From a virus (lineage: Duplodnaviria > Heunggongvirae > Uroviricota > Caudoviricetes), in IMG/VR virus record IMGVR_UViG_2698536372_000019, positions 1 to 41,997 of that record: a DNA stretch of 41,997 nucleotides. One strand, 5' to 3'. The translations under genes were made by a program, and so were the position numbers. Position 1 is the first letter of the stretch; every line of letters starts with the position of its first letter. Positions 1 to 33,894 of the stretch are shown here, piece by piece. The notes under the pieces were generated by a model. The model did no database searches and was not told the DNA's origin. It saw only the letters and a list, made by a program, of their open reading frames with translations.

Positions 1-681
1 CGGTTGCTGTTCTTTTTGCCGGAAGTAGCTGTCTTCCAGTTTTTCAAAGAATGCCCATGCCTGATCGGTTTCGAGCATTTTAGCGTGGCGGGCTGCGCCG
101 CGTTCTGTCCAGAGGGTGAGTGAGCGAACATTGCGAGCAATTTTTACAGAGTAGTTTAAAGCTACTCTGTGCTTCAACTCGCGCAATGATTCTCCTTCAA
201 CTTTGAAAAAGTGCTTCCCTTCAACAAAGCGTACTTTGTTCTCATGATGATTTTGGCGAATACGGATTGTTTCTGTCCCATACCCTCTCGCAAGAGTCTC
301 GGTTGTCACTACACGCACTCCCTGCCATTCCAGAACGGGAATTTCATCAGACTGATTCTGAACAACCACCAGCTCCGATTCCTGAACTGAAGGTGCATGA
401 ATTTTTTCTAATTTAACGTTATTTGCTTTCATTCTGTGTGCCTCCTTGCGTGCTTCGGCTGCGACGGTTGCGTAATTCAGATGACCCTGTTCGAGCAGGT
501 ATTCGCGGATATCAGACAACAGGATACGGTGAACCGCGTTCTTGTCCTTTCTCCGGTAAAGTTGTTTGGTGATCATGAAGTAGTTGGCAATAACGCCAGG
601 TATATCCCTGGTGCTGATACAGATTGTGTGCTGTTCAATTGCCTCGATCATCTCTTCACGGGTGACTAATGACTTTCTCAT
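1..681 (-). CDS. ant: anti-repressor Ant, middle-domain variant M2, 5' part (3' end runs off the window start)
   Basis: ATG at 681-679 preceded by GGAGGG; translation MRKSLVTREEMIEAIEQHT...; shared 85-aa N-terminal domain, then ORF6N/Bro-N-like middle ...GYGTETIRIRQNHHENKVRFVEGKHFF, identical to the copy at 17462-18182. Confidence 0.7.
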   Translation of the reverse strand, partial: MRKSLVTREEMIEAIEQHTICISTRDIPGVIANYFMITKQLYRRKDKNAVHRILLSDIREYLLEQGHLNYATVAAEARKEAHRMKANNVKLEKIHAPSVQESELVVVQNQSDEIPVLEWQGVRVVTTETLARGYGTETIRIRQNHHENKVRFVEGKHFFKVEGESLRELKHRVALNYSVKIARNVRSLTLWTERGAARHAKMLETDQAWAFFEKLEDSYFRQKEQQP

Positions 682-899
682 AGTCCCTCCTGAGCAGAAG
701 CGTTAACAGGGAGGCACCAGTAACTGAGAGAATTGCGTGAATCAGTGGAAAAACGGGCAGAGAAAATACATGGGGCGTCAGGAAGCTGAGAGCGAGCCTC
801 ATCTTCTGTTGGTGCAATAACGAAGTGATAGTGACGTTTTTGGCAGGAGTAAAAGCGCCAGATAAATTCAGGATGAGTTGGGGTAGGGATAGTAGCCAT
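678..899 (-). CDS. icd: Icd-like 73-aa protein; stop overlaps the ant start (ATGA)
   Basis: 73-codon ORF MATIPTPTHPEFIWRFYSCQKRHYHF... with AGGAGG RBS; size and position match P1 icd as I recall it; the 187-aa six-frame ORF is an upstream over-extension. Confidence 0.5.
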   Translation of the reverse strand: MATIPTPTHPEFIWRFYSCQKRHYHFVIAPTEDEARSQLPDAPCIFSARFSTDSRNSLSYWCLPVNASAQEGL

Positions 900-959
900 A
901 TTGGCAGCCTCCTTAGACGTTGGTATGTAACCACCGCAGAAGAGACCAATCTTGCTGGC

Positions 960-1035
960 GGTGGACTGTACGGAGTTGGCCTTACTGGCGTCCAAGGTAA
1001 CCAGCCTACCCGAAGGTAGCCCCATACAGCCCACC
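960..1035 (-). ncRNA. c4: c4-like antisense RNA, allele T1 (76 nt, structured)
   Basis: closing stem GGUGGGCUGUAUGG / CCGUACAGUCCACC, internal CUACC-UUCG-GGUAG hairpin; segment CCUUGGACG complementary (one G-U) to CGUCUAAGG overlapping the icd RBS at 911-919. Confidence 0.45.
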
Positions 1036-1217
1036 ATTGTAGAGGTGTGCGTGTACGCCGATACAAAAAAAGACGCGAGCGGCGTCTGTATCGCCTTAGA
1101 CTTAAGCGGGAGGCCAATCCCGGCACCCGTTTTAATGAGGTGCCTGATAAGCATAAACCGAAAATGCCTCAAGGCGCAAGAGGTCAGGCTCAATGTAACA
1201 TCGGTAGTTAAAAAACA

Positions 1218-1234
1218 CAATTTATTAGAGCAAA
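1218..1234 (-). promoter_or_regulatory. C1 operator-like site (Op51-like), 15/17 to ATTGCTCTAATAAATTT
   Basis: plus strand reads CAATTTATTAGAGCAAA. Confidence 0.6.
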
Positions 1235-1282: not shown

Positions 1283-2247
1283 GCGTTGATGTATTGCTGG
1301 AACGGCACATTTTTACGTCCACCGGACGCTATCAGGATGCCGTTCTCCCGTAACCAGGCAAACAACGCGTTTTGCTTAAGCCCAACAACCTTTGCAAAAT
1401 TTCCAATCAGGATCCCCTTGGCCACTGATACCCGGTCGGCAAAATCGACTTTAGGGGCGGCGGCCACCAGCTGCTGATTTAGCTGGTGGGCTTTCTGTTC
1501 CAGAAGTTGCTTTTGTTCAGCCAGTTCGGCAGCCAGGCGCAGAGCTTCGGGAAGCGTCTGGGGGATTGCGATCGGTTGCTGTTCTTTTTGTCGGAAGTAG
1601 CTGTCTTCCAGTTTTTCAAAGAATGCCCACGCTTCATTTGTGTCCACGATCTTAGACATGCGTGCCGCTCCGCGCTCGGCCCAGAGAATTACCTGACTTG
1701 TATATTTGCTAACCAAGTGACTAATAGTCACTAGCCTTTTAAATTCCTTTAATTTTGAACCAGTTAAGAGATAGTAATGCTTACCTTCTTCAAAGCGATC
1801 GGGGTTGCGAGACAAATTTTTACGAATATTCGCTTCATCGGTCCCATACCCTTTAGCAAGAGTCTCAGTTGTCACTACACGCACTCCCAGCCATTCCAGA
1901 ACGGGAATTTCATCAGACTGATTCTGAACAACCACCAGCTCCGATTCCTGAACTGAAGGTGCATGAATTTTCTCTGATTTAACGTTAGTTGCTTTCATTC
2001 TGTGTGCCTCCTTGCGTGCTTCGGCTGCGACGGTTGCGTAATTCAGATGACCCTGTTCGAGCAGGTATTCGCGGATATCAGACAACAGGATACGGTGAAC
2101 CGCGTTCTTGTCCTTTCTCCGGTAAAGTTGTTTGGTGATCATGAAGTAGTTGGCAATAACGCCAGGTATATCCCTGGTGCTGATACAGATTGTGTGCTGT
2201 TCAATTGCCTCGATCATCTCTTCACGGGTGACTAATGACTTTCTCAT
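1283..2247 (-). CDS. ant: anti-repressor Ant, variant M1a, 3'-truncated at J1
   Basis: ATG 2247-2245 with GGAGGG RBS; N-terminal domain, ORF6N-like middle ...GYGTDEANIRKNLSRNPDRFEEGKHYYLL..., KilAC-like C-terminal region cut at ...NVPFQQYIN. Confidence 0.75.
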
Positions 2248-2465
2248 AGTCCCTCCTGAGCAGAAGCGTTAACAGGGAGGCACCAGTAACTGAGAGAATT
2301 GCGTGAATCAGTGGAAAAACGGGCAGAGAAAATACATGGGGCGTCAGGAAGCTGAGAGCGAGCCTCATCTTCTGTTGGTGCAATAACGAAGTGATAGTGA
2401 CGTTTTTGGCAGGAGTAAAAGCGCCAGATAAATTCAGGATGAGTTGGGGTAGGGATAGTAGCCAT
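2244..2465 (-). CDS. icd: Icd-like 73-aa protein (copy adjacent to pacB)
   Basis: identical to 678-899. Confidence 0.5.
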   Translation of the reverse strand: MATIPTPTHPEFIWRFYSCQKRHYHFVIAPTEDEARSQLPDAPCIFSARFSTDSRNSLSYWCLPVNASAQEGL

Positions 2466-2525
2466 ATTGGCAGCCTCCTTAGACGTTGGTATGTAACCAC
2501 CGCAGAAGAGACCAATCTTGCTGGC

Positions 2526-2601
2526 GGTGGACTGTACGGAGTTGGCCTTACTGGCGTCCAAGGTAACCAGCCTACCCGAAGGTAGCCCCATACAGCCCAC
2601 C
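2526..2601 (-). ncRNA. c4: c4-like antisense RNA, allele T1 (copy adjacent to pacB)
   Basis: identical to 960-1035. Confidence 0.45.
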
Positions 2602-2629
2602 ATTGTAGAGGTGTGCGTGTACGCCGATA

Positions 2630-2652
2630 CAAAAAAAGACGCGAGCGGCGTC
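2630..2652 (-). terminator. hairpin GACGCCGCUCGCGUC followed by U7 on the minus strand, between pacB and c4
   Basis: read on minus strand; a second copy sits at 1064-1086; candidate -10 TACAAT lies just downstream of it on the minus strand. Confidence 0.4.
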
Positions 2653-2783
2653 TGTATCGCCTTAGACTTAAGCGGGAGGCCAATCCCGGCACCCGTTTTA
2701 ATGAGGTGCCTGATAAGCATAAACCGAAAATGCCTCAAGGCGCAAGAGGTCAGGCTCAATGTAACATCGGTAGTTAAAAAACA

Positions 2784-2800
2784 CAATTTATTAGAGCAAA
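2784..2800 (-). promoter_or_regulatory. C1 operator-like site immediately after the pacB stop
   Basis: CAATTTATTAGAGCAAA, 15/17 to consensus. Confidence 0.6.
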
Positions 2801-2803
2801 TAT

Positions 2804-4288
2804 TCATTCATTAAGCCATGCCAGAGCTTCATCAACCTGCGCTTCGTCTTCGACGCTAAGCACTTCATCTTGGGGAACATAGTTCGCCAACATAGCGAAA
2901 CAATATGTATCCCAATGGTCCGGTGAGTGCAGGTTGAGTTTTTTCTTCATATCTTCCTTTGACATCACCTTCCATTGACCTGCGGAATTTATCCCTACCG
3001 GTATCTTTGATGCTTCCTCTATAGTCGCAGCCCCCTTATCAAGCCGCATACGCCCTGATTTTACAGCTTCTGCCGCCTGAATATTCGCGAAAGCGCGCAT
3101 ATCGAAATAAAGGCTTTTATCTTCACGGCTGTGCATCTTTTTACCCCAGCGGATACGCTGGACGGTAATACCATAGCGTTCGTACATCAGATCAGCCGTC
3201 GATTTCCCCAAGCCATCGCCATCAATAGCTATGGTTATGTTCGGGAACCGTTCTGGGTTACATTCTGCGAAAATCTTGGCGGCTAACTGCGTTTCTGTAA
3301 CGTCTGTGTATTCCAGCATACGATAGTTGATTACACGGCGTTTATTTCGCTGGCCGGACACCATCATGATATTAATAACGGACTTATCTCGTCCTGTGCC
3401 ACCAGCAACGTCAACACATGCAACCCAGCCCCATCCTTTGGCAATCTTGACCTTTCGCCGCGTCGCCCGCTCAACCTCATCACGACCAAGAAGAAAGCCA
3501 TCTTGAGATTTGGGAAATTCACCACGTACTTTGATCATGTACATGGGGTTATCACGACCGCCATACTCCGCAAGTTTTGCTCGTATAAATTTTGCATCTA
3601 CAAGCGGAGATTCTTCACTATTCAGTATTATCGCAGTAAACAATCCATCAGGATTTCCCGGGCGAATAGCTAGTCTGTGGTGTGAATCGTAGAAATAGCC
3701 TGAAGGTCGCGTAGGCTGGGAAAGAAGCAGAATACGGTTATCCTTACCGGTCAGCGCACCTGTTATCACACTGAATGCTTTATCACTCACACCCGACGCT
3801 TCGTCGATGATATACAAGAGATGATCGGCGTGTTCACCAGCCAACGCCTCCTCATTTCCGGGGCGACAGGACTTTATCAATATTGTCCAAACACCCTTGC
3901 CAGTCACCTCAAAAAAAGACGTTTCTGTAAGAATGAAATACTTCGACAACCACGGGAATCTGCTAACAGCAGTAGCCCAATTGCTCTTTATGTATTTGAA
4001 AATACCATCAAGGACTTGCTGTCTTTTGTTAGCGACCAGAATAACGCGAGCGCCGGGGAAAAACATGATGAAGAGTATTGCAATGATACTCGTCATATCC
4101 GACTTACCAGTACCATGGCCGGAGGTCACACTTGTCCAACTGCCGTCCTGCTGCGTGGACTCAATGATCTCATCCTGCTGCCAGGTTGGTGTCTTCCCAA
4201 ACAACACATCAGCGGCCGCAATCCAGTCATAACGATATAGCGCCACCAGCTCGCGCCAACGTGGGTCCGTTACGCAACTTCTGGCCAT
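2804..4288 (-). CDS. pacB: terminase large subunit PacB (494 aa)
   Basis: Walker [10 protein letters not shown]; length and position after pacA as in P1. Confidence 0.9.
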
Positions 4289-5481
4289 TAATCATCATCC
4301 CCGTACAGTTTGCGGGTAACTTCTTCGTCTTCCTCCTCGTTTTCGTCCAGATCCTGTTCAAGCCATGCTTCGTTTGATATGCCTTCCGCATCGACATCAC
4401 CATAACCACCTGTATCGACGATATCGGCAATTTCTTCTCTACGATGCTCAATCCACAATGCGGCATCAGCGCGGCGGCTGGCGGCCCGTTCTCGCGCAAC
4501 TTTGTCCAGATCTTCAAGAGAAGGGCCACCGACGGCTGTTTGCCTTTCCTCATCATCGGTATTGGTCTTAGGAGCACGCAGATCGGCTTTGATTTGCTCC
4601 AGCATCAGGGGCGGAACTTTCCCACCATGCGCCTCGATGAATTCAGCTGCTTCCAGCACTGACCAGTTATTTTCACGCTTTCGTTCGTATGCCAGCTTAA
4701 CAATGCCAGCTTGCCCCATAGATAAAGCGTGCTTTTCCGCCTCCCGGCTTTCTTTTCGATAGTTATTCCGGATGCTGTAAATGGTGTTGATCAGACTGCT
4801 TATCTGCGCGGAACAGCTGTTTAGCATGCTCGCGATACGGTATTCAGGCGGAGTACCTTCATCATCGTCTTTTTGCTGATCGCGCATTTCCTGCACCAGG
4901 CGAATACACGTATCCCTGGCGTTCTCCAGCATAAGGAGATGAGAAAGAGACTTTTCAAGAAGAGTGGTTTCCAGAACATCGGCCCCGGACCGACGCAACA
5001 TAGCGCGCGCGGCCTTCCGCGCTTCAACGTTATCTATCAGGTAATCGCCAGCTTCGAATTCAAAGCGTTCACCATCATCATCCAGGGTGTCGCGTTCCAG
5101 GCGATCACGTAAGGTCCGGTGGGCGCGGGTGATCACGTCATGATCATCAGAACGATCATTTATGCGCTTATTTTGGCGCTTCGCATTCTCGACTGCGGCA
5201 CTGACAACGGCATTAACCCTTTGTTTTTCCGTTATTTCAGCCGCAATGTGATCACCTGCATGTTGATCATTAGAGTGATCAATGATCATGCTTTTTAGTG
5301 GCTTCCTGACTGGCTTATTTGGCTTGCGGCTGTCCGCTGTCCTGGTGTCTTCTTTGAAGGCACGGAGATAACGACGTGCAGTATTAGGGTTAAGATTAAA
5401 CTCGGCGGCATACTGTGCGATGGTGTAACCACCATCTCGCGCCAGGCGAGCAAAATTCTTCTTGTGATCGTCCCAGGTCAC
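4288..5481 (-). CDS. pacA: terminase small subunit PacA (397 aa), contains the pac site
   Basis: [39 protein letters not shown]...; acidic C-terminus; hexamer clusters inside the gene. Confidence 0.9.
5102..5288. other. pac: P1-type pac site: two clusters of four TGATCA/TGATCG hexamers, each containing GATC
   Basis: hexamers at 5102, 5130, 5141, 5153 and 5249, 5264, 5276, 5283, separated by about 90 bp. Confidence 0.85.
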
Positions 5482-10353: not shown

Positions 10354-10540
10354 GGTCCGCCTCATGCTTTTCAGCCACCAGCGGCAATAAAGCCCTGGCC
10401 ATCTTATGAACCAACAGAGCATCGATAATGCCAAGCGTATGCCCCGGCTTAATGTTTAATGCCGCCTCAAGGTGACACCTTTCCAGGTCACTTTTCTCGG
10501 CTTGTTTATGATGGTCTGGCGTAATAACGTCGCCCAAAAC
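10337..10540 (-). CDS. 3' end of a gene truncated by the N-run
   Basis: ...PGHTLGIIDALLVHKMARALLPLVAEKHEADHANES; upstream part lost in the gap. Confidence 0.35.
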   Translation of the reverse strand, partial: VLGDVITPDHHKQAEKSDLERCHLEAALNIKPGHTLGIIDALLVHKMARALLPLVAEKHEADHANES

Positions 10541-10557
10541 NNNNNNNNNNNNNNNNN
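10541..10557. other. assembly gap J2 (17 N)
   Basis: N-run placed 3 codons before the expected ant stop. Confidence 0.95.
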
Positions 10558-11582
10558 GCTACTGGTTTTAACAAACCAGCATCAAGTAGCTTGCGAGTTA
10601 ACCACTGCTGGCCTTTACCCGTTAATTGGGGCGTCAGCCGTATCTGGTAACCATCTTCATCATCCAGCACCACTTCTTTCACCGTGAAATACCCGGCGTT
10701 GATGTACTGCTGGAACGGCACATTTTTACGTCCACCGGACGCTATCAGGATGCCGTTCCCCCGTAACCAGGCAAACAACGCGTTTTGCTTAAGCCCAACA
10801 ACCTTTGCAAAATTTCCAATCAGGATCCCCTTGGCCCCTGATACCCGGTCGGCAAAATCGACTTTAGGGGCGGCGGCCACCAGCTGTTGTTCCAACTGCA
10901 TTTTCTGTTCTGCCAACTCGGCAGCCAGGCGCAGTGCTTCGGGGAGTGTTTGGGGGATCGCTGGAGAAGCCGTGCTAGCCTGCTGCAATTCTTCCAGTTT
11001 GTCGATCAGCGAACGGCGGACCGCTTTTGACTCGCGCGCGGCGACTCGCAGGGCTTGTTTGAAAGTCATGGTGATAATGTCTATGTTTGCACCATTTTTG
11101 CGACCTACACTTTTTGTGTAGGTCTCACCTTCAAGCTCATCTACAACCTTCTCAATAAACTTATTATTTCTTACTAATGGTTCCCCACATAACTTACGCG
11201 CCTCATTAACCATCTTTAACAGCGTCTGGCTGTCGATTGTGTCTCCGGTGTTGGGGATAGCATCCATGACCGGTGCTGGTGTGGTTGCTGTCAAAGGCTT
11301 TGTAACGACAACATCTGGTTTGCTTGCTTTCATTCTGTGTGCCTCCTTGCGTGCTTCGGCTGCGACGGTTGCGTAATTCAGATGACCCTGTTCGAGCAGG
11401 TATTCGCGGATATCAGACAACAGGATACGGTGAACCGCGTTCTTGTCCTTTCTCCGGTAAAGTTGTTTGGTGATCATGAAGTAGTTGGCAATAACGCCTG
11501 GTATATCCCTGGTGCTGATACAGGCAGTGTGCTGTTCAATTGCCTCGATCATCTCTTCACGGGTGACTAATGACGTTCTCAT
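10558..11582 (-). CDS. ant: anti-repressor Ant, variant M3 (AntA-like middle domain), nearly complete
   Basis: N-terminal MRTSLVTREEMIEAIEQHTACIST..., distinct middle ...LLKMVNEARKLCGEPLVRNNKFIEKV..., KilAC-like C-terminus ...LTRKLLDAGLLKPV. Confidence 0.75.
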
Positions 11583-11800
11583 AGCCCCTCCTGAACAGAA
11601 GCGTTAACAGGGAGGCACCAGTAACTGAGAGAATTGCGCGAGTCAGTAGAAAAGCGTGCGGAGAAAATGCAGGGAGCATCCGGAAGCTGAGAACGTGCCT
11701 CATCTTCTGTTGGTGCGATAACGAAGTGATAGTGGCGTTTCTGGCAGGAGTAAAAGCGCCAGATAAATTCAGGGCGTGCGCAAGGATTGGCATTAACCAT
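11579..11800 (-). CDS. icd: Icd-like 73-aa protein, allele T2 (MVNANPCARPEF...)
   Basis: 73 codons, overlaps ant start; N-terminus differs from the T1 allele. Confidence 0.45.
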   Translation of the reverse strand: MVNANPCARPEFIWRFYSCQKRHYHFVIAPTEDEARSQLPDAPCIFSARFSTDSRNSLSYWCLPVNASVQEGL

Positions 11801-12050
11801 AGTTACGGCCTCACAATCAGGTTTAACAACCTGCTACCCGCTGTCNNNTCAGTAGAAAAGCGTGCGGAGAAAATGCAGGGAGCATCCGGAAGCTGAGAAC
11901 GTGCCTCATCTTCTGTCGGTGCAATAACGAAGTGATAGTGGCGTTTCTGGCAGGAGTAAAAGCGCCAGATAAATTCAGGGCGTGCGCAAGGATTGGCATT
12001 AACCATAGTTACGGCCTCACAATCAGGTTTAACAACCTGCTACCCGCTGC
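11640..12050. repeat. about 206-bp unit present twice, separated by NNN (11846-11848)
   Basis: direct duplication of the icd-prime region flanking an N-run (J3); likely assembly artefact. Confidence 0.7.
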
Positions 12051-12127
12051 TAAACAGGTGGCAGGACGTGACGGGGTTAGCAGACTGGCGATTGTGAAAC
12101 CAGCAGGCCGAAGCCTCCCCATCACGC
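12051..12127 (-). ncRNA. c4: c4-like antisense RNA, allele T2 (77 nt)
   Basis: same closing stem and UUCG hairpin as T1; internal segments UCACAAUC and CUGCUAA complementary to 12084-12091 and 12071-12077 partners (see finding). Confidence 0.45.
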
Positions 12128-12306
12128 CCCACCATAATTTGGGCGTAACGCGGTTTTACGGACACAAAAATACCGCAATATCGGATATCTGCGGCTGTCC
12201 GCACAATCATTCAGGCTGCTAAACCCGGTCGCAGAATTTGCTACGACGTAGGAACTATAAGCCTGAACAACAGGAAGATCAATAGTCTGGCGTCCAATAG
12301 TAGTTT

Positions 12307-12340
12307 ATTTGCCCCAATAAATCAAATTTATTAGAGCAAT
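12307..12340. promoter_or_regulatory. bipartite C1 operator: degenerate left half plus perfect site AAATTTATTAGAGCAAT (12324-12340)
   Basis: 17/17 match to reverse complement of consensus. Confidence 0.7.
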
Positions 12341-13530: not shown

Positions 13531-13780
13531 GTTTTCTCTCCAGCCTGTGCCAAGGCTTTGACGTCGAAATTATGTCCTATTCGGTTTTATTGTATCAGAT
13601 AGTGTGGACATATTATTTCACGTCCGGCGTAGTCGGTCATAGCTTTTGCCTTCCACCTTTTCCACGCCGTATCTAATCGGCGCCCGATGAAATGTTATTG
13701 CACTAATATATTTCAATATTTCGCTGACACTTGAACAGCGAAACACCCCCATAGATAGCTTGTTCATTGGTAATCCTTAA

Positions 13781-16569: not shown

Positions 16570-16632
16570 AAAAATAACCCCGGCGGCTGCCGGGGTATCT
16601 GAAATCACTGGCGGCCGAAAGGCCGCCTTTTT
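16570..16632. terminator. back-to-back rho-independent terminators
   Basis: plus strand GGCGGCCGAAAGGCCGCC + T5 (16610-16632); minus strand CCCCGGCAGCCGCCGGGG + T-rich (16570-16594). Confidence 0.65.
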
Positions 16633-16639
16633 AATTTAA

Positions 16640-17055
16640 TCACTCAGCCGCTACTGGTTTTAACAAACCAGCATCAAGTAGCTTGCGAGTTAACCACTGC
16701 TGGCCTTTACCCGTTAATTGGGGCGTCAGCCGTATCTGGTAACCATCTTCATCATCCAGCACCACTTCTTTCACCGTGAAATACCCGGCGTTGATGTACT
16801 GCTGGAACGGCACATTTTTACGTCCACCGGACGCTATCAGGATGCCGTTCCCCCGTAACCAGGCAAACAACGCGTTTTGCTTAAGCCCAACAACCTTTGC
16901 AAAATTTCCAATCAGGATCCCCTTAGCCACTGATACCCGGTCGGCAAAATCGACCTTAGGGGCGGCGGCCACCAGCTGCTGATTTAGCTGGTGGGCTTTC
17001 TGTTCCAGAAGTTGCTTTTGTTCAGCCAGTTCGGCAGCCAGGCGCAGAGCTTCGG
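16640..17055 (-). CDS. ant: Ant C-terminal (KilAC-like) fragment, 5'-truncated by the N-run
   Basis: ...AAPKVDFADRVSVAKGILIGNFAKVVGLKQNALFAWLR...KPVAAE stop. Confidence 0.6.
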
Positions 17056-17066
17056 NNNNNNNNNNN
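17056..17066. other. assembly gap J4 (11 N)
   Basis: sequence on the two sides is unrelated. Confidence 0.95.
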
Positions 17067-17220
17067 GCTGAACATTTTGTGATGAATGCAACGGAGGAGG
17101 AAGCGCGGCGAGGGCTTACTAGAGTGATGGCGGAATTTGGCGAACTCCTGGGTAAGGTAAACAATGCCCTTTCAATCAGTTCAGCAAGATCCAAAGCGTT
17201 AACAGCTTCCATGATGAAAT
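17067..17220 (+). pseudogene. orphan 3' end of an unidentified gene (...MAEFGELLGKVNNALSISSARSKALTASMMK stop)
   Basis: open frame enters from the N-run and ends at TAA 17218-17220. Confidence 0.3.
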
Positions 17221-17221
17221 A

Positions 17222-17247
17222 AAAAAGCCTGGCAAGGAGCCAGGCTG
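17222..17247 (-). terminator. hairpin AGCCUGG-CUCCUUG-CCAGGCU followed by a U-run on the minus strand
   Basis: read directly. Confidence 0.5.
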
Positions 17248-17352
17248 CACAAAAGAGCGGGTTTGTATTCCGCATCCAATCAATCAAGAAAGAGTATAGC
17301 ACACAGGTACTGAAGTGAAAAAATGTGATTCTCGATTAACAAAATATCTACC

Positions 17353-17376
17353 ATTGCTCTAATTGATTGCTATAAT
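17353..17376 (+). promoter_or_regulatory. C1 operator-like site (14/17) overlapping a TATAAT -10
   Basis: ATTGCTCTAATTGATTG then CTATAAT. Confidence 0.45.
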
Positions 17377-17436
17377 TGAGCCGCAGTTTTTGTCAACTAC
17401 GAAGACGTTGCCATTATAGACTCCGTGACATCATTG

Positions 17437-17460
17437 GCGGCCGAAAGGCCGCCTTTTTTA
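17437..17460 (+). terminator. GGCGGCCGAAAGGCCGCC + T6
   Basis: same hairpin as at 16610. Confidence 0.6.
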
Positions 17461-17461
17461 A

Positions 17462-18182
17462 TCATTCAGCCGCCACCGGTTTTAACAAGCCAGCTTCGAG
17501 CAGTTTACGCGTCAACCACTGCTGGCCTTTACCCGTTAATTGGGGCGTCAGCCGTATCTGGTAACCATCTTCATCATCCAGCACCACTTCTTTCACCGTG
17601 AAATACCCGGCGTTGATGTATTGCTGGAACGGCACATTTTTACGTCCACCGGACGCTATCAGGATGCCGTTCTCCCGTAACCAGGCAAACAACGCGTTTT
17701 GCTTAAGCCCAACAACCTTTGCAAAATTTCCAATCAGGATCCCCTTGGCCACTGATACCCGGTCGGCAAAATCGACTTTAGGGGCGGCGGCCACCAGCTG
17801 CTGATTTAGCTGGTGGGCTTTCTGTTCCAGAAGTTGCTTTTGTTCAGCCAGTTCGGCAGCCAGGCGCAGAGCTTCTGGAAGCGTCTGGGGGATTGCAACC
17901 GGTTGCTGTTCTTTTTGCCGGAAGTAGCTGTCTTCCAGTTTTTCAAAGAATGCCCATGCCTGATCGGTTTCGAGCATTTTAGCGTGGCGGGCTGCGCCGC
18001 GTTCTGTCCAGAGGGTGAGTGAGCGAACATTGCGAGCAATTTTTACAGAGTAGTTTAAAGCTACTCTGTGCTTCAACTCGCGCAATGATTCTCCTTCAAC
18101 TTTGAAAAAGTGCTTCCCTTCAACAAAGCGTACTTTGTTCTCATGATGATTTTGGCGAATACGGATTGTTTCTGTCCCATAC
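17462..18182 (-). CDS. ant: anti-repressor Ant, variant M2, 3' part (5'-truncated at J5)
   Basis: ...TETIRIRQNHHENKVRFVEGKHFFKVEGESLRELKH... through the KilAC-like domain to the stop; overlaps in sequence with the 5' part at 1-290. Confidence 0.7.
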
Positions 18183-18183
18183 N
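18183..18183. other. assembly junction J5 (single n)
   Basis: frame and homology break inside ant. Confidence 0.9.
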
Positions 18184-19227
18184 ACCCGTTAATTGGGGCG
18201 TCAGCCGTATCTGGTAACCATCTTCATCATCCAGCACCACTTCTTTCACCGTGAAATACCCGGCGTTGATGTACTGCTGGAACGGCACATTTTTACGTCC
18301 ACCGGACGCTATCAGGATGCCGTTCCCCCGTAACCAGGCAAACAACGCGTTTTGCTTAAGCCCAACAACCTTTGCAAAATTTCCAATCAGGATCCCCTTA
18401 GCCACTGATACCCGGTCGGCAAAATCGACCTTAGGGGCGGCGGCCACCAGCTGCTGATTTAGCTGGTGGGCTTTCTGTTCCAGAAGTTGCTTTTGTTCAG
18501 CCAGCTCGGCAGCCAGGCGCAGAGCTTCGGGAAGCGTCTGAGGGATTGCGATCGGTTGCTGTTCTTTTTGCCGGAAGTAGCTGTCTTCCAGTTTTTCAAA
18601 GAATGCCCATGCCTGATCGGTTTCGATCATTTTAGCGTGGCGGGCTGCGCCGCGTTCCGTCCAGAGAGTGAGGTTTCTGGCGTTCTTACCAACAGAGTTA
18701 CTAAAAGTAACTCTGTTCTTAAATTCCTTTAATTTTGAACCAGTTAAAAGAAAGTAGTGTTTACCTTCTTCAAAGCGATCGGAGTTGCAAGACAAATTTT
18801 TACGAATATTGCCTTCATCGGTTCCGTACCCCTTAGCAAGAGTTTCGGTTGTTACGACACGTACTCCCTGCCATTCCAGAACGGGAATTTCATCAGACTG
18901 ATTCTGAACAACCACCATCTCCGATTCCTGAACTGAAGGTGCATGAATTTTTTCTGATTTAACGTTAGTTGCTTTCATTCTGTGTGCCTCCTTGCGTGCT
19001 TCGGCTGCGACGGTTGCGTAATTCAGATGACCCTGTTCGAGCAGGTATTCGCGGATATCAGACAACAGGATACGGTGAACCGCGTTCTTGTCCTTTCTCC
19101 GGTAAAGTTGTTTGGTGATCATGAAGTAGTTGGCAATAACGCCTGGTATATCCCTGGTGCTGATACAGGCAGTGTGCTGTTCAATTGCCTCGATCATCTC
19201 TTCACGGGTGACTAATGACGTTCTCAT
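18184..19227 (-). CDS. ant: anti-repressor Ant, variant M1b, 3'-truncated at J5
   Basis: MRTSLVTREEMIEAIEQHTACIST...; ORF6N-like middle; KilAC-like region ends at ...LTPQLTG. Confidence 0.75.
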
Positions 19228-19445
19228 AGCCCCTCCTGAACAGAAGCGTTAACAGGGAGGCACCAGTAACTGAGAGAATTGCGCGAGTCAGTAGAAAAGC
19301 GTGCGGAGAAAATGCAGGGAGCATCCGGAAGCTGAGAACGTGCCTCATCTTCTGTCGGTGCAATAACGAAGTGATAGTGGCGTTTCTGGCAGGAGTAAAA
19401 GCGCCAGATAAATTCTTGGCGTGCGCAAGGATTGGCATTAACCAT
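19224..19445 (-). CDS. icd: Icd-like 73-aa protein, allele T3
   Basis: MVNANPCARQEF...; overlaps ant start. Confidence 0.45.
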   Translation of the reverse strand: MVNANPCARQEFIWRFYSCQKRHYHFVIAPTEDEARSQLPDAPCIFSARFSTDSRNSLSYWCLPVNASVQEGL

Positions 19446-19495
19446 AGTTACGGCCTCATGTACAGGTTTAACAACCTGCTACCCGCTGTCAAACA

Positions 19496-19572
19496 GGTGG
19501 CAGGACGTGACGGGGTTGACAGACTGGCGTACATGAAACCAGCAGGCCGAAGCCTCCCCATCACGCCCCACC
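19496..19572 (-). ncRNA. c4: c4-like antisense RNA, allele T3 (77 nt)
   Basis: differs from T2 only in two short segments that co-vary with the icd leader. Confidence 0.45.
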
Positions 19573-19745
19573 ATAATTCGGGCGTAACGTGGTTTACGGA
19601 CACAAAAATACCGCAATATCGGATATCTGCGGTTGTCCGCATGTACATTCAGGCTGTCAAACCCGGTCGCAGAATTTACTACGACGTAGGAACTATAAGC
19701 CTGAACAACAGGAAGATCAATAGTCTGGCGTTCGATGGTAGTTTA

Positions 19746-32199: not shown

Positions 32200-32420
32200 T
32201 TATCCACATTATCCACTGGATAGATCCAATAATCAGGTCCATACAGATCCCAATTAGATCCATATAGATCCCTGATCGTTGCAGGCCGCGCCACGTCTGG
32301 CTTAGAAGTGTATCGCGATGTGTGCTGGAGGGAAAACGATGTGTGCTGGAGGGATAAAAATGTGTGCTGACGGGTTGCTAATGTGTGCTGGCGGGATATA
32401 GGATGTGTGCTGACGGGAAA
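32200..32420. repeat. oriR: oriR: two DnaA boxes (TTATCCACA, TTATCCACT), GATC cluster, five direct 19-bp iterons GATGTGTGCTGGAGGGAAA
   Basis: iterons at 32316, 32337, 32358, 32379, 32401; five GATC sites at 32220-32280. Confidence 0.9.
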
Positions 32421-32476
32421 GCCTGGGTAGTTATCACCACTTATAAAAACTATCCACACAATTCGGAAAAAGTAAT

Positions 32477-33337
32477 ATGAATCAATCATTTATCTCCGAT
32501 ATTCTTTACGCAGACATTGAAAGTAAGGCAAAAGAACTAACAGTTAATTCAAACAACACTGTGCAGCCTGTAGCGTTGATGCGCTTGGGGGTATTCGTGC
32601 CGAAGCCATCAAAGAGCAAAGGAGAAAGTAAAGAGATTGATGCCACCAAAGCGTTTTCCCAGCTGGAGATAGCTAAAGCCGAGGGTTACGATGATATTAA
32701 AATCACCGGTCCTCGACTCGATATGGATACTGATTTCAAAACGTGGATCGGTGTCATCTACGCGTTCAGCAAATACGGCTTGTCCTCAAACACCATCCAG
32801 TTATCGTTTCAGGAATTCGCTAAAGCCTGTGGTTTCCCCTCAAAACGTCTGGATGCGAAACTGCGTTTAACCATTCATGAATCACTTGGACGCTTGCGTA
32901 ACAAGGGTATCGCTTTTAAGCGCGGAAAAGATGCTAAAGGCGGCTATCAGACTGGTCTGCTGAAGGTCGGGCGTTTTGATGCTGACCTTGATCTGATAGA
33001 GCTGGAGGCTGATTCGAAGTTGTGGGAGCTGTTCCAGCTTGATTATCGCGTTCTGTTGCAACACCACGCCTTGCGTGCCCTTCCGAAGAAAGAAGCTGCA
33101 CAAGCCATTTACACTTTCATCGAAAGCCTTCCGCAGAACCCGTTGCCGCTATCGTTCGCGCGAATCCGTGAGCGCCTGGCTTTGCAGTCAGCTGTTGGCG
33201 AGCAAAACCGTATCATTAAGAAAGCGATAGAACAGCTTAAAACAATCGGCTATCTCGACTGTTCTATTGAGAAGAAAGGCCGGGAAAGTTTTGTAATCGT
33301 CCATTCTCGCAATCCAAAGCTGAAACTCCCCGAATAA
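32477..33337 (+). CDS. repA: plasmid replication initiator RepA (286 aa)
   Basis: flanked by iteron arrays on both sides as in the P1 R replicon. Confidence 0.9.
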   Translation: MNQSFISDILYADIESKAKELTVNSNNTVQPVALMRLGVFVPKPSKSKGESKEIDATKAFSQLEIAKAEGYDDIKITGPRLDMDTDFKTWIGVIYAFSKYGLSSNTIQLSFQEFAKACGFPSKRLDAKLRLTIHESLGRLRNKGIAFKRGKDAKGGYQTGLLKVGRFDADLDLIELEADSKLWELFQLDYRVLLQHHALRALPKKEAAQAIYTFIESLPQNPLPLSFARIRERLALQSAVGEQNRIIKKAIEQLKTIGYLDCSIEKKGRESFVIVHSRNPKLKLPE

Positions 33338-33621
33338 GTGTGTGCTGGAGGGAAACCGCATTAAAAAGATGTGTGCTGCCGGGAAGGCTTGTCCAATTTC
33401 CTGTTTTTGATGTGCGCTGGAGGGGGACGCCCCTCAGTTTGCCCAGACTTTCCCTCCAGCACACATCTGTCCATCCGCTTTTCCCTCCAGTGCACATGTA
33501 ATTCTCTGCCTTTCCCTCCAGCACACATATTTGATACCAGCGATCCCTCCACAGCACATAATTCAATGCGACTTCCCTCTATCGCACATCTTAGACTTTT
33601 ATTCTCCCTCCAGCACACATC
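33336..33621. repeat. incA: incA: nine iterons (three direct, six inverted)
   Basis: ATGTGTGCTGGAGGGAA-type repeats in both orientations. Confidence 0.85.
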
Positions 33622-33894
33622 GAAGCTGCCGGGCAAGCCGTTCTCACCAGTTGATAGAGAGTGAAGCTTGGCTGCCCATTGAAGCAGGAAATCACCAAAA
33701 TGATTCAGGCTACAACCTGAACGTAGAAGAAATCCGCGTCCTTTATGCGTGGAGGATGCCAAAGCATGTTGTGACACACTTGGCAAAGGAGTAAGCATGC
33801 AGAGAATGCTATGTACAAGCATCTACGCATACATTATTATTTTATGCAGCATTTTTAATTAAATTCAAAAATACAGCATAAAGGATGACTTTCG

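Follow-up and report, generated by a model that had tools for sequence, protein, structure and literature searches.

Differently coded c4-icd-ant immunity cassettes in a P1-like phage-plasmid sequence and in closed plasmids related to it

The 42-kb stretch analysed here (the window; all 41,997 nucleotides (nt) of IMG/VR record IMGVR_UViG_2698536372_000019) is P1-like (Punavirus) phage-plasmid sequence of Escherichia coli, and contains four complete c4-icd-ant cassettes and a fifth that is cut off. We call the complete cassettes T1 (two identical copies, a and b), T2 and T3. They are very probably immunity modules of P1-like phage-plasmids, working by the antisense mechanism published for P1 and P7. 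In these two phages, c4 RNA is processed by RNase P from a leader transcript and represses icd and ant in trans, and different c4 alleles lead to heteroimmunity. The mechanism, the code formed by the a' and b' segments of c4, and the role of that code in P1/P7 heteroimmunity are textbook matter, and all three RNA families involved are in Rfam. T2 is already known, as the c4 of P7, while T3 and T1 are uncharacterised specificities. The less familiar point is the number of differently coded copies that one plasmid may carry.

The cassettes share one predicted order, which begins with a C1 operator and promoter and continues with a leader carrying elements a1 and b1, a c4 RNA of 76-77 nt, elements a2 and b2 over the icd ribosome-binding site, icd, and ant. 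Judged from sequence, this layout matches the annotation of the P1 and P7 immI operons feature by feature, and the positions of the window elements are homologous to a1, b1, a2, b2, c4, P51 and Op51 as annotated in P1. The Rfam C4 model (RF01695; gathering score 45 bits) has four matches in the window, all on the minus strand, with scores of 69.6-75.9 bits. Upstream of c4, the a1 and b1 elements belong to family c4-a1b1 (RF03163) in T2 and T3, and lie inside a leader matching isrK (RF01394; threshold 50 bits) in both T1 copies. There are eight matches to the C1 operator in the window, versus 0.01 expected, and one of these predicted sites stands at the head of every cassette (perfect for T2 and T3, two mismatches for each T1 copy). 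Downstream, T1, T3 and the cut-off cassette each have icd and an antirepressor gene that overlaps it, and T2 has the first 52 icd codons only. The features of T2, which adjoins mat, are as follows.

12057-12133, minus strand: c4 antisense RNA, 77 nt (RF01695 match at 12054-12139, 69.6 bits)
12090-12097, minus strand: b' loop, GATTGTGA (RNA UCACAAUC)
12077-12083, minus strand: a' junction, TTAGCAG (RNA CUGCUAA)
12017-12024, minus strand: b2, TCACAATC, exact reverse complement of b', overlapping the Shine-Dalgarno sequence GAGG (12013-12019)
12047-12053, minus strand: a2, CTGCTAA, exact reverse complement of a'
12202-12208 and 12216-12222, minus strand: upstream targets b1 and a1, complementary to b' and a'
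12208-12260, minus strand: c4-a1b1 match (RF03163), 53.2 bits
12277-12282 and 12254-12259, minus strand: -35 and -10 elements of a promoter-like site homologous to P1 P1c4/P51b
12324-12340, minus strand: predicted C1 operator, perfect 17-mer
11849-12006, minus strand: icd, first 52 codons only (start codon 12004-12006), broken off by the NNN join at 11846-11848

Over its 77 nt, the T2 c4 has 100% identity with the c4 misc_RNA in the annotation of phage P7, and the T2 leader, 295 nt long, is 97.3% identical to its P7 counterpart. T2 has the code of P7 (ACAAUC/CU, given as the b' hexamer and a' dinucleotide that vary) in a1, b1, a2 and b2 as well as in c4, and shares with P7 immI (c4-icd-ant1/2) the C1 operator and a P51b-like promoter. 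Its b2 and a2 positions are homologous to the b2 and a2 misc_binding features of the P1 annotation. The location differs, as P7 immI lies between the sim/upf region and kilA, and T2 instead beside mat. The predicted fold of the T2 RNA has a free energy of -44.9 kcal/mol (z -5.7), with b' in a 9-nt loop and a' in a 7-nt unpaired junction. Because its c4 is identical to that of P7, T2 would be expected to undergo the same processing and to repress in trans as P7 does. P1 immI (RF01695, RF03163) has the same architecture and fold, and the c4 stems are nearly identical, with one G-C to G.U change in P1.

T3 lies beside dbn, at a locus that is empty in P1.

19496-19572, minus strand: c4 antisense RNA, 77 nt (RF01695 match at 19493-19578, 70.7 bits)
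19529-19536, minus strand: b', GTACATGA (RNA UCAUGUAC)
19516-19522, minus strand: a', TTGACAG (RNA CUGUCAA)
19456-19463, minus strand: b2, TCATGTAC, exact complement of b', over the Shine-Dalgarno sequence at 19452-19458
19486-19492, minus strand: a2, CTGTCAA, exact complement of a'
19640-19646 and 19654-19660, minus strand: upstream targets b1 and a1
19646-19698, minus strand: c4-a1b1 match (RF03163), 52 bits
19762-19778, minus strand: predicted C1 operator, perfect match to ATTGCTCTAATAAATTT
19224-19445, minus strand: icd, 73 amino acids, Icd family NF033153
18073-19227, minus strand: ant, overlapping icd, with ORF6N and KilAC domains; C-terminus unreliable past the N at 18183

P1 specificity is likewise set by a' and b' against a2/b2 and a1/b1. 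The T3 code (AUGUAC/UC) combines the b' hexamer of phage vB_EcoM-Ro157c2YLVW with the a' dinucleotide of P1, whose own b' is ACUAAC. In 22 closed E. coli plasmids the 255-nt T3 leader recurs with 100% identity, with no annotated feature beneath the match, and no experimental characterisation of this specificity was found in searchable papers. We had considered T3 a unique new allele and rejected this, as the same combination occurs in 9 of the 129 P1-type copies listed, the window's own included.

The T1, T2 and T3 RNAs fold into one shape, a long closing stem with two hairpins, in which b' occupies the second loop and a' an unpaired junction. Their z-scores against shuffled sequences range from -4.2 (T1) through -4.8 (T3) to the -5.7 of T2, and minimum-free-energy and centroid structures agree. 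The comparison with other copies covered at least 129 P1-type c4 copies, drawn from an IMG/VR pattern scan together with reference phages and plasmids, and 57 T1-type copies (24 unique sequences) from public data. Among the P1-type copies listed, the b' hexamer has at least seven alleles (ACAATC, ACTAAC, GTAAGT, ATTCGT, ATGTAC, ACAAGT and TTGAAC) and the a' dinucleotide at least two (CT and TC), which occur in at least 12 combinations. Here a2 is the exact complement of a' in all 127 readable copies and b2 complements b' in 126 of them; the corresponding upstream matches are 118/118 for a1 and 117/118 for b1. Across the P1-type and T1-type copies listed, changes on one side are matched by changes on the other, so that complementarity persists in all but two or three.

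When 31 distinct P1-type leaders are aligned, 100% of the cells of the intermolecular helices are paired, and both sides have changed in six of the eight b'-b2 pairs and two of the seven a'-a2 pairs. None of 500 shuffles attains as high a covariation score, and when the partner is displaced by 1-3 columns, pairing falls to 32-53%. The a1 and b1 helices have a like pattern of pairing and covariation, and the T1 type repeats it on 17 distinct leaders. There are three T1-type alleles of a (UUGGCC, UUGGAAC and UUGAGAC), each matched by a', and three of b (GUCUAAGG, GCAAAAGG and GUCAAAGG), each matched by b', and they occur in several combinations. The c4 stems themselves covary between T1 subtypes, with nine pairs changed on both sides. 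Specificity thus appears combinatorial, with a' and b' assorting independently in a code that is modular and recombining. In computed duplexes, the b' loop pairs with its cognate leader at -15 to -16 kcal/mol, compared with -6 to -11 kcal/mol for leaders that are not cognate. These values come from loop and junction oligonucleotides, which replaced RNAduplex runs of full-length c4 against the leaders; the latter were uninformative, since they open the c4 stems and give no diagonal.

Two cassettes in the samples have mismatched elements. In IMGVR_UViG_2565956613_000015, a 4.9-kb contig with c4 near 4780 (minus strand), b' ATTCGT fits b1, and b2 is the P1-type GTTAGT; the cassette may have arisen by recombination, and its ant may evade the accompanying c4. 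In one T1-type cassette (5040-5303, minus strand), a1 UUGAGAC mismatches a' and a2 (GUUCCAA and UUGGAAC), and the leader is recombinant.

A preliminary description of the window, made from its sequence alone, had proposed T1, T2 and T3 as three immI alleles with compensatory changes between c4 and its targets. Its coordinates for T3 (19456-19572) and T1 (960-1035 and 2526-2601) are exact, and all its T2 positions are 6 nt too low, so that the locus given as 12011-12127 is in fact 12017-12133. All of the strings that it quoted are present, and the c4 segments are exact reverse complements of the leader elements. The near-identity of T2 and T3 outside the paired elements also stands: the two differ at 12 positions in the ~145 nt from the icd start codon to the 5' end of c4, and all 12 are complementary changes in b2, a2, a' and b'. 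The description omitted six further differences, all in the upstream a1 and b1 elements. The pattern of heteroimmune specificities, as in P1 versus P7, is borne out by the Rfam matches, the identity of T2 with P7 c4 and the covariation in at least 129 and 57 copies. Folding, covariation analysis and alignment with P1 and P7 c4, which it had suggested as checks, came out in its favour, the last giving the P7 sequence for T2 and the a' of P1 for T3.

The T1 cassettes are of another kind.

Copy a
960-1035, minus strand: c4-like RNA (RF01695 match at 954-1041, 75.9 bits)
990-997, minus strand: b' (RNA CCUUGGAC)
976-982, minus strand: a' (RNA AGGCCAA)
911-918, minus strand: b2, inside the Shine-Dalgarno region AAGGAGG (908-914)
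943-949, minus strand: a2
678-899, minus strand: icd, full Icd-family open reading frame (ORF), start codon 897-899
1065-1143, minus strand: isrK-like leader with b1 (1094-1101) and a1 (1111-1117)
1066-1143, minus strand: isrK match (RF01394), 60.8 bits
1065-1087, minus strand: intrinsic terminator from a terminator scan, ending the leader upstream of c4
1218-1234, minus strand: C1-operator-like site, two mismatches
Copy b
2244-2800, minus strand: whole copy, with c4, icd and leader identical to copy a; abuts the pacB stop at 2804
2244-2465, minus strand: icd
2477-2484 and 2509-2515, minus strand: b2 and a2
2526-2601, minus strand: c4 (RF01695 match at 2520-2607, 75.9 bits)
2631-2653, minus strand: terminator
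2660-2667 and 2677-2683, minus strand: b1 and a1
2632-2709, minus strand: isrK match (RF01394)
2784-2800, minus strand: C1-operator-like site, two mismatches

In T1, CCUUGGAC(G) pairs with (C)GUCUAAGG over the Shine-Dalgarno sequence, with one G.U pair, so the preliminary description was right that a third sequence pairs over the icd ribosome-binding site. The a' segment has one G.U pair with a2 (UUGGUCU) and pairs perfectly with a1 (UUGGCCU). Downstream are an Icd-family ORF (NF033153) and a KilAC antirepressor gene (PF03374). The module has 100% identity with the pacB-c1 module of plasmid pO111_2, 99.2% with its counterpart in phage 673R5 and 83-85% with the counterparts in RCS47 and JL22, and the window T1 is the commonest allele among the sampled T1-type copies. 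The region also has 78-79% nucleotide identity to lambdoid phages converting to Shiga toxin 2a (Stx2a), one record of which annotates C4 plus isrK. As in the lambdoid isrK-C4 modules (Gifsy-1 isrK-orf45-anrP and those of Stx2a phages), an isrK leader with its terminator precedes an RNA of the C4 model and a downstream antirepressor gene. Unlike them, T1 is in a P1-like plasmid between pacB and c1, has a C1-operator-like site, and has a full icd instead of orf45. From these likenesses, T1 is best classed as a distinct lambdoid isrK+C4 type with an unrelated code and not, as first described, as a third variant of P1 immI. Nor does the term immI alleles suit the set as a whole. The cassettes are rather paralogues at separate loci (T1 between pacB and c1, T2 by mat, T3 by dbn), and the classical immI locus between sim and kilA lies just past the end of the window.

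If these cassettes act as in P1 and P7, the leader would be transcribed and the c4 RNA then excised from it, with RNase P as the processing enzyme by analogy with the published P1 work. The folded c4 would expose b' in the hairpin loop and a' in the single-stranded junction beside the long stem, so that both could bind the b2 and a2 elements belonging to their own cassette type, either in cis or on the transcript of another genome, and block translation of icd. The ant gene, a KilAC antirepressor gene, would be translationally coupled to icd. Since ant depends on icd translation, it would stay silent, no antirepressor would be made, and the C1 repressor would remain active. The upstream a1 and b1 sites would pair with the same bases of c4, probably as competing decoys. 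The six variable bases of b' and the two of a', mirrored in the four target sites, would decide which ant a given c4 silences; each c4 should accordingly act mainly on its own ant. For T1, we infer that the terminated isrK-like leader, which carries a1 and b1, would titrate the c4-like RNA and thereby switch on the antirepressor.

Cassettes of this kind occupy several loci in P1-like plasmids of Shiga-toxin-producing and other E. coli, namely sim-kilA, pacB-c1, ref-mat, after mat, dbn and pro-lyz. The P1-type leader is present at least once in 536 of 5426 complete E. coli genomes and at up to five places per genome, and RefSeq has no annotated feature beneath the c4 leader match in any closed E. 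coli record listed. The co-residence of three to five cassettes on one plasmid is genuine, because closed plasmids hold three, four and five of them. Plasmid pO111_2 has three C4 genes. In plasmid pE2865-1 there are four cassettes, at the classical immI, dbn, ref-mat and pacB-c1 loci, and icd and ant are intact in each. The closed 99-kb plasmid p88_0502-1 (NZ_CP077568.1) has five c4-icd-ant cassettes, two of which flank mat in divergent orientation.

p88_0502-1, about 2492, 30187, 65650 and 67472: c4 genes
p88_0502-1, about 59033: start of the T1-type leader

All five b' segments of p88_0502-1 are different (codes ACAATC/TC, ATGTAC/TC, ACAAGT/TC, GTAAGT/CT and the T1 type). Among about 20 pairs of co-resident cassettes, none is identical in both a' and b'. 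A stricter rule, that cassettes on one plasmid always differ in b', was disproved by the pair ATGTAC/CT and ATGTAC/TC of pE2865-1.

The window itself is a scaffold and not a finished sequence. Runs of N at 1282, 10541-10557, 11846-11848, 17056-17066 and 18183 are contig joins, and for this reason the order of the blocks is unreliable. Individual blocks of the backbone match closed E. coli plasmids, among them pO111_2 (NC_013370) and pE2865-1 (NZ_AP018809), at 97-99.7% identity, and are out of order with respect to both. The block 1-1281 stops 43 nt inside pacB and, after a single N, the sequence resumes inside an ant gene. Pieces of the ant/icd repeat are chained between joins, with ant fragments at 16600-19227, and positions 1-283 are identical to 17900-18182. 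The two T1 copies form a tandem with a period of 1566 nt, and their ant parts are 94-98% alike; copy b is the one at the native pacB-c1 position. The tandem is probably a scaffolding artefact and not a real duplication. Each c4 is contained with all of its target sites in a single N-free block.

The cut-off fourth cassette of the P1 type lies next to one of these joins.

10506-11845, minus strand: truncated cassette, with ant at 10506-11582, icd at 11579-11800, and then the leader

Its ant and icd are intact (Icd NF033153 and KilAC PF03374 are found). Its leader (11800-11845) carries b2 TCACAATC, of the P7 type, and the start of a P1-type a2 (GCTGTC), and ends at the N join at 11846; its c4 is missing. 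The preliminary description counted three loci, and overlooked both this leader and the C1 operators at the cassette heads. Its claim of three specificities in one scaffold holds in so far as such cassettes reside together in closed plasmids; the scaffold itself is a set of joined contigs, with a T1 tandem that probably arose in their assembly.

Several observations weigh against the reading of the cassettes as a set of working, separately coded immunity modules. The unreliable block order of the scaffold is one, and the T2 ant gene, which falls beyond the contig break at 11846-11848 and is hence not resolved, is another. Some ant genes in closed plasmids are damaged (IS1203 interrupts one in pO111_2, where a second is in fragments, and an internal stop is present in one of p88_0502-1), so not all of the cassettes can be functional. 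Nor are the cassettes within a plasmid always fully distinct, because some share b'. The fourth cassette of the window has the b' code of T2 with another a', and in pE2865-1 the c4 genes at 3467 and 69792 have the common b' ATGTAC and differ only in a' (CT versus TC). The pE2865-1 pair raises the question of whether a 2-nt difference in a' can alone separate specificities, and duplex energies of a' oligonucleotides separate the alleles poorly. The avoidance of identical codes is not significant and is suggestive at best, because chance alone would make only about 13% of pairs identical and the plasmids are relatives of one another. For T3, T1 and the other alleles not found in P1 or P7, trans action and orthogonality are predictions from base pairing.

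The joins also give rise to the possibility that the co-occurrence itself is an artefact, in which contigs of several P1-like plasmids, or mis-joined repeats, were placed together and the real replicon has a single immI. The N-run joins, the jump from pacB to ant at 1282, the chained ant fragments, the repeat of 1-283 at 17900-18182, and the reordering of the backbone blocks relative to pO111_2 and pE2865-1 despite their high identity would all agree with this. We nevertheless consider it very improbable, as no c4 is separated from its targets by a run of N, pO111_2 and Ro157c2YLVW have an unbroken T2-mat junction, the T3-dbn junction is found in 23 closed genomes at 99.3% identity, and closed plasmids have three, four and five cassettes; only the T1 tandem and the block order look artefactual. 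It is also highly unlikely that the leader acts only in cis, by an attenuator-like self-folding in which the c4 region covers the icd ribosome site, with no separate trans-acting RNA to set specificity. The c4 and its targets do share one transcript, and an inactive intramolecular structure masks translation in Gifsy-1 isrK-orf45-anrP (PMC4825925). However, the long covarying closing stem fits the need of a stable excised RNA and not that of a cis mask, and the two target sets (a1/b1 and a2/b2) both track the same loop. In addition, T2 is identical to the c4 of P7, which is reportedly a processed, trans-acting repressor of 77 nt that determines heteroimmunity.

The damaged ant genes of pO111_2 and p88_0502-1 would equally suit an account in which T1, T3 and the fourth cassette are functionless leftovers, decaying after recombination between P1-like plasmids and Stx prophages, with only the classical immI at work. 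The likeness of the T1-type leader to Stx2a-converting phages (78-79% identity) does suggest acquisition from co-resident prophages. As an explanation of the whole set, this account is unlikely. Complementarity is near-perfect in nearly all copies at every locus, where drift would erode such pairing, and icd and ant are intact at four loci in pE2865-1, the operators are kept, and 22 plasmids have the T3 leader without a single change. For T1 alone, the isrK-like leader RNA might be the main regulator, as a trans activator of ant translation, and the c4-like RNA not an immunity repressor. The isrK match is well above threshold (60.8 versus 50 bits), the leader has its own intrinsic terminator directly upstream of c4, and there is a precedent in Gifsy-1 of Salmonella, where IsrK raises anrP translation more than 100-fold in trans (PMC4825925). 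We regard this as a possibility on the doubtful side. It is compatible with a c4 repressor in T1, since the leader carries a1 and b1 complementary to a' and b', so that an IsrK-like RNA would activate ant by titrating c4; and T1, unlike Gifsy-1, has a full Icd-family ORF. The reading of the cassettes as c4-icd-ant immunity modules remains the one that we prefer.

An ecological role may be proposed for such sets. As a resident, a multi-cassette plasmid should silence incoming relatives that carry any of its codes, and when it enters a lysogen, one or more of its own ant genes should be beyond the reach of the resident c4. Up to five cassettes at separate loci, each with its own code, would then form a lock-and-key set in an RNA-coded arms race over superinfection immunity; we put this forward tentatively, as an idea that falls a little short of even likelihood. 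A comparable use of few bases is familiar from plasmid replication. In ColE1 RNA I/RNA II and R1 CopA/CopT, a few loop bases of a structured antisense RNA set the partner, and point changes give new compatibility groups. These RNAs are unrelated to C4 in sequence and fold, are outside the C4 family, and control replication and not an antirepressor. If the c4 codes are truly orthogonal, they would make it possible to predict which P1-like plasmids, many of them with resistance genes, displace, induce or coexist with one another, and would amount to a natural set of orthogonal antisense switches. Published papers refer in passing to additional icd and ant genes, located near mat and between pacB and c1, and to D6-like plasmids with a second c4/icd region (PMC6906374, PMC6799933). 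In searchable papers, which mostly leave out the older subscription literature, we found no account of which c4 alleles exist, of how they combine, of plasmids with several differently coded cassettes or of an arms race of this kind; the older literature may have one.

The window has some further features outside the cassettes. More predicted C1 operators are found at three places, one of which is an overlapping inverted pair adjoining a long ORF. Four transfer RNA genes correspond to the transfer RNA cluster near ban (dnaB) of the closed plasmids pO111_2 and pE2865-1. Megablast finds no counterpart in pO111_2 or pE2865-1 for a stretch of about 1.5 kb that contains two ORFs, although the flanking blocks align at ~99%.

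13697-13713 and 29947-29963: predicted C1 operators
25391-25418: overlapping inverted pair of predicted C1 operators, adjoining the 1095-amino-acid ORF at 25409-28696
22471-22543, minus strand: transfer RNA gene
24492-24735, minus strand: cluster of three transfer RNA genes
32301-33796: stretch without megablast match
32477-33337, plus strand: ORF in this stretch
33361-33822, minus strand: ORF in this stretch

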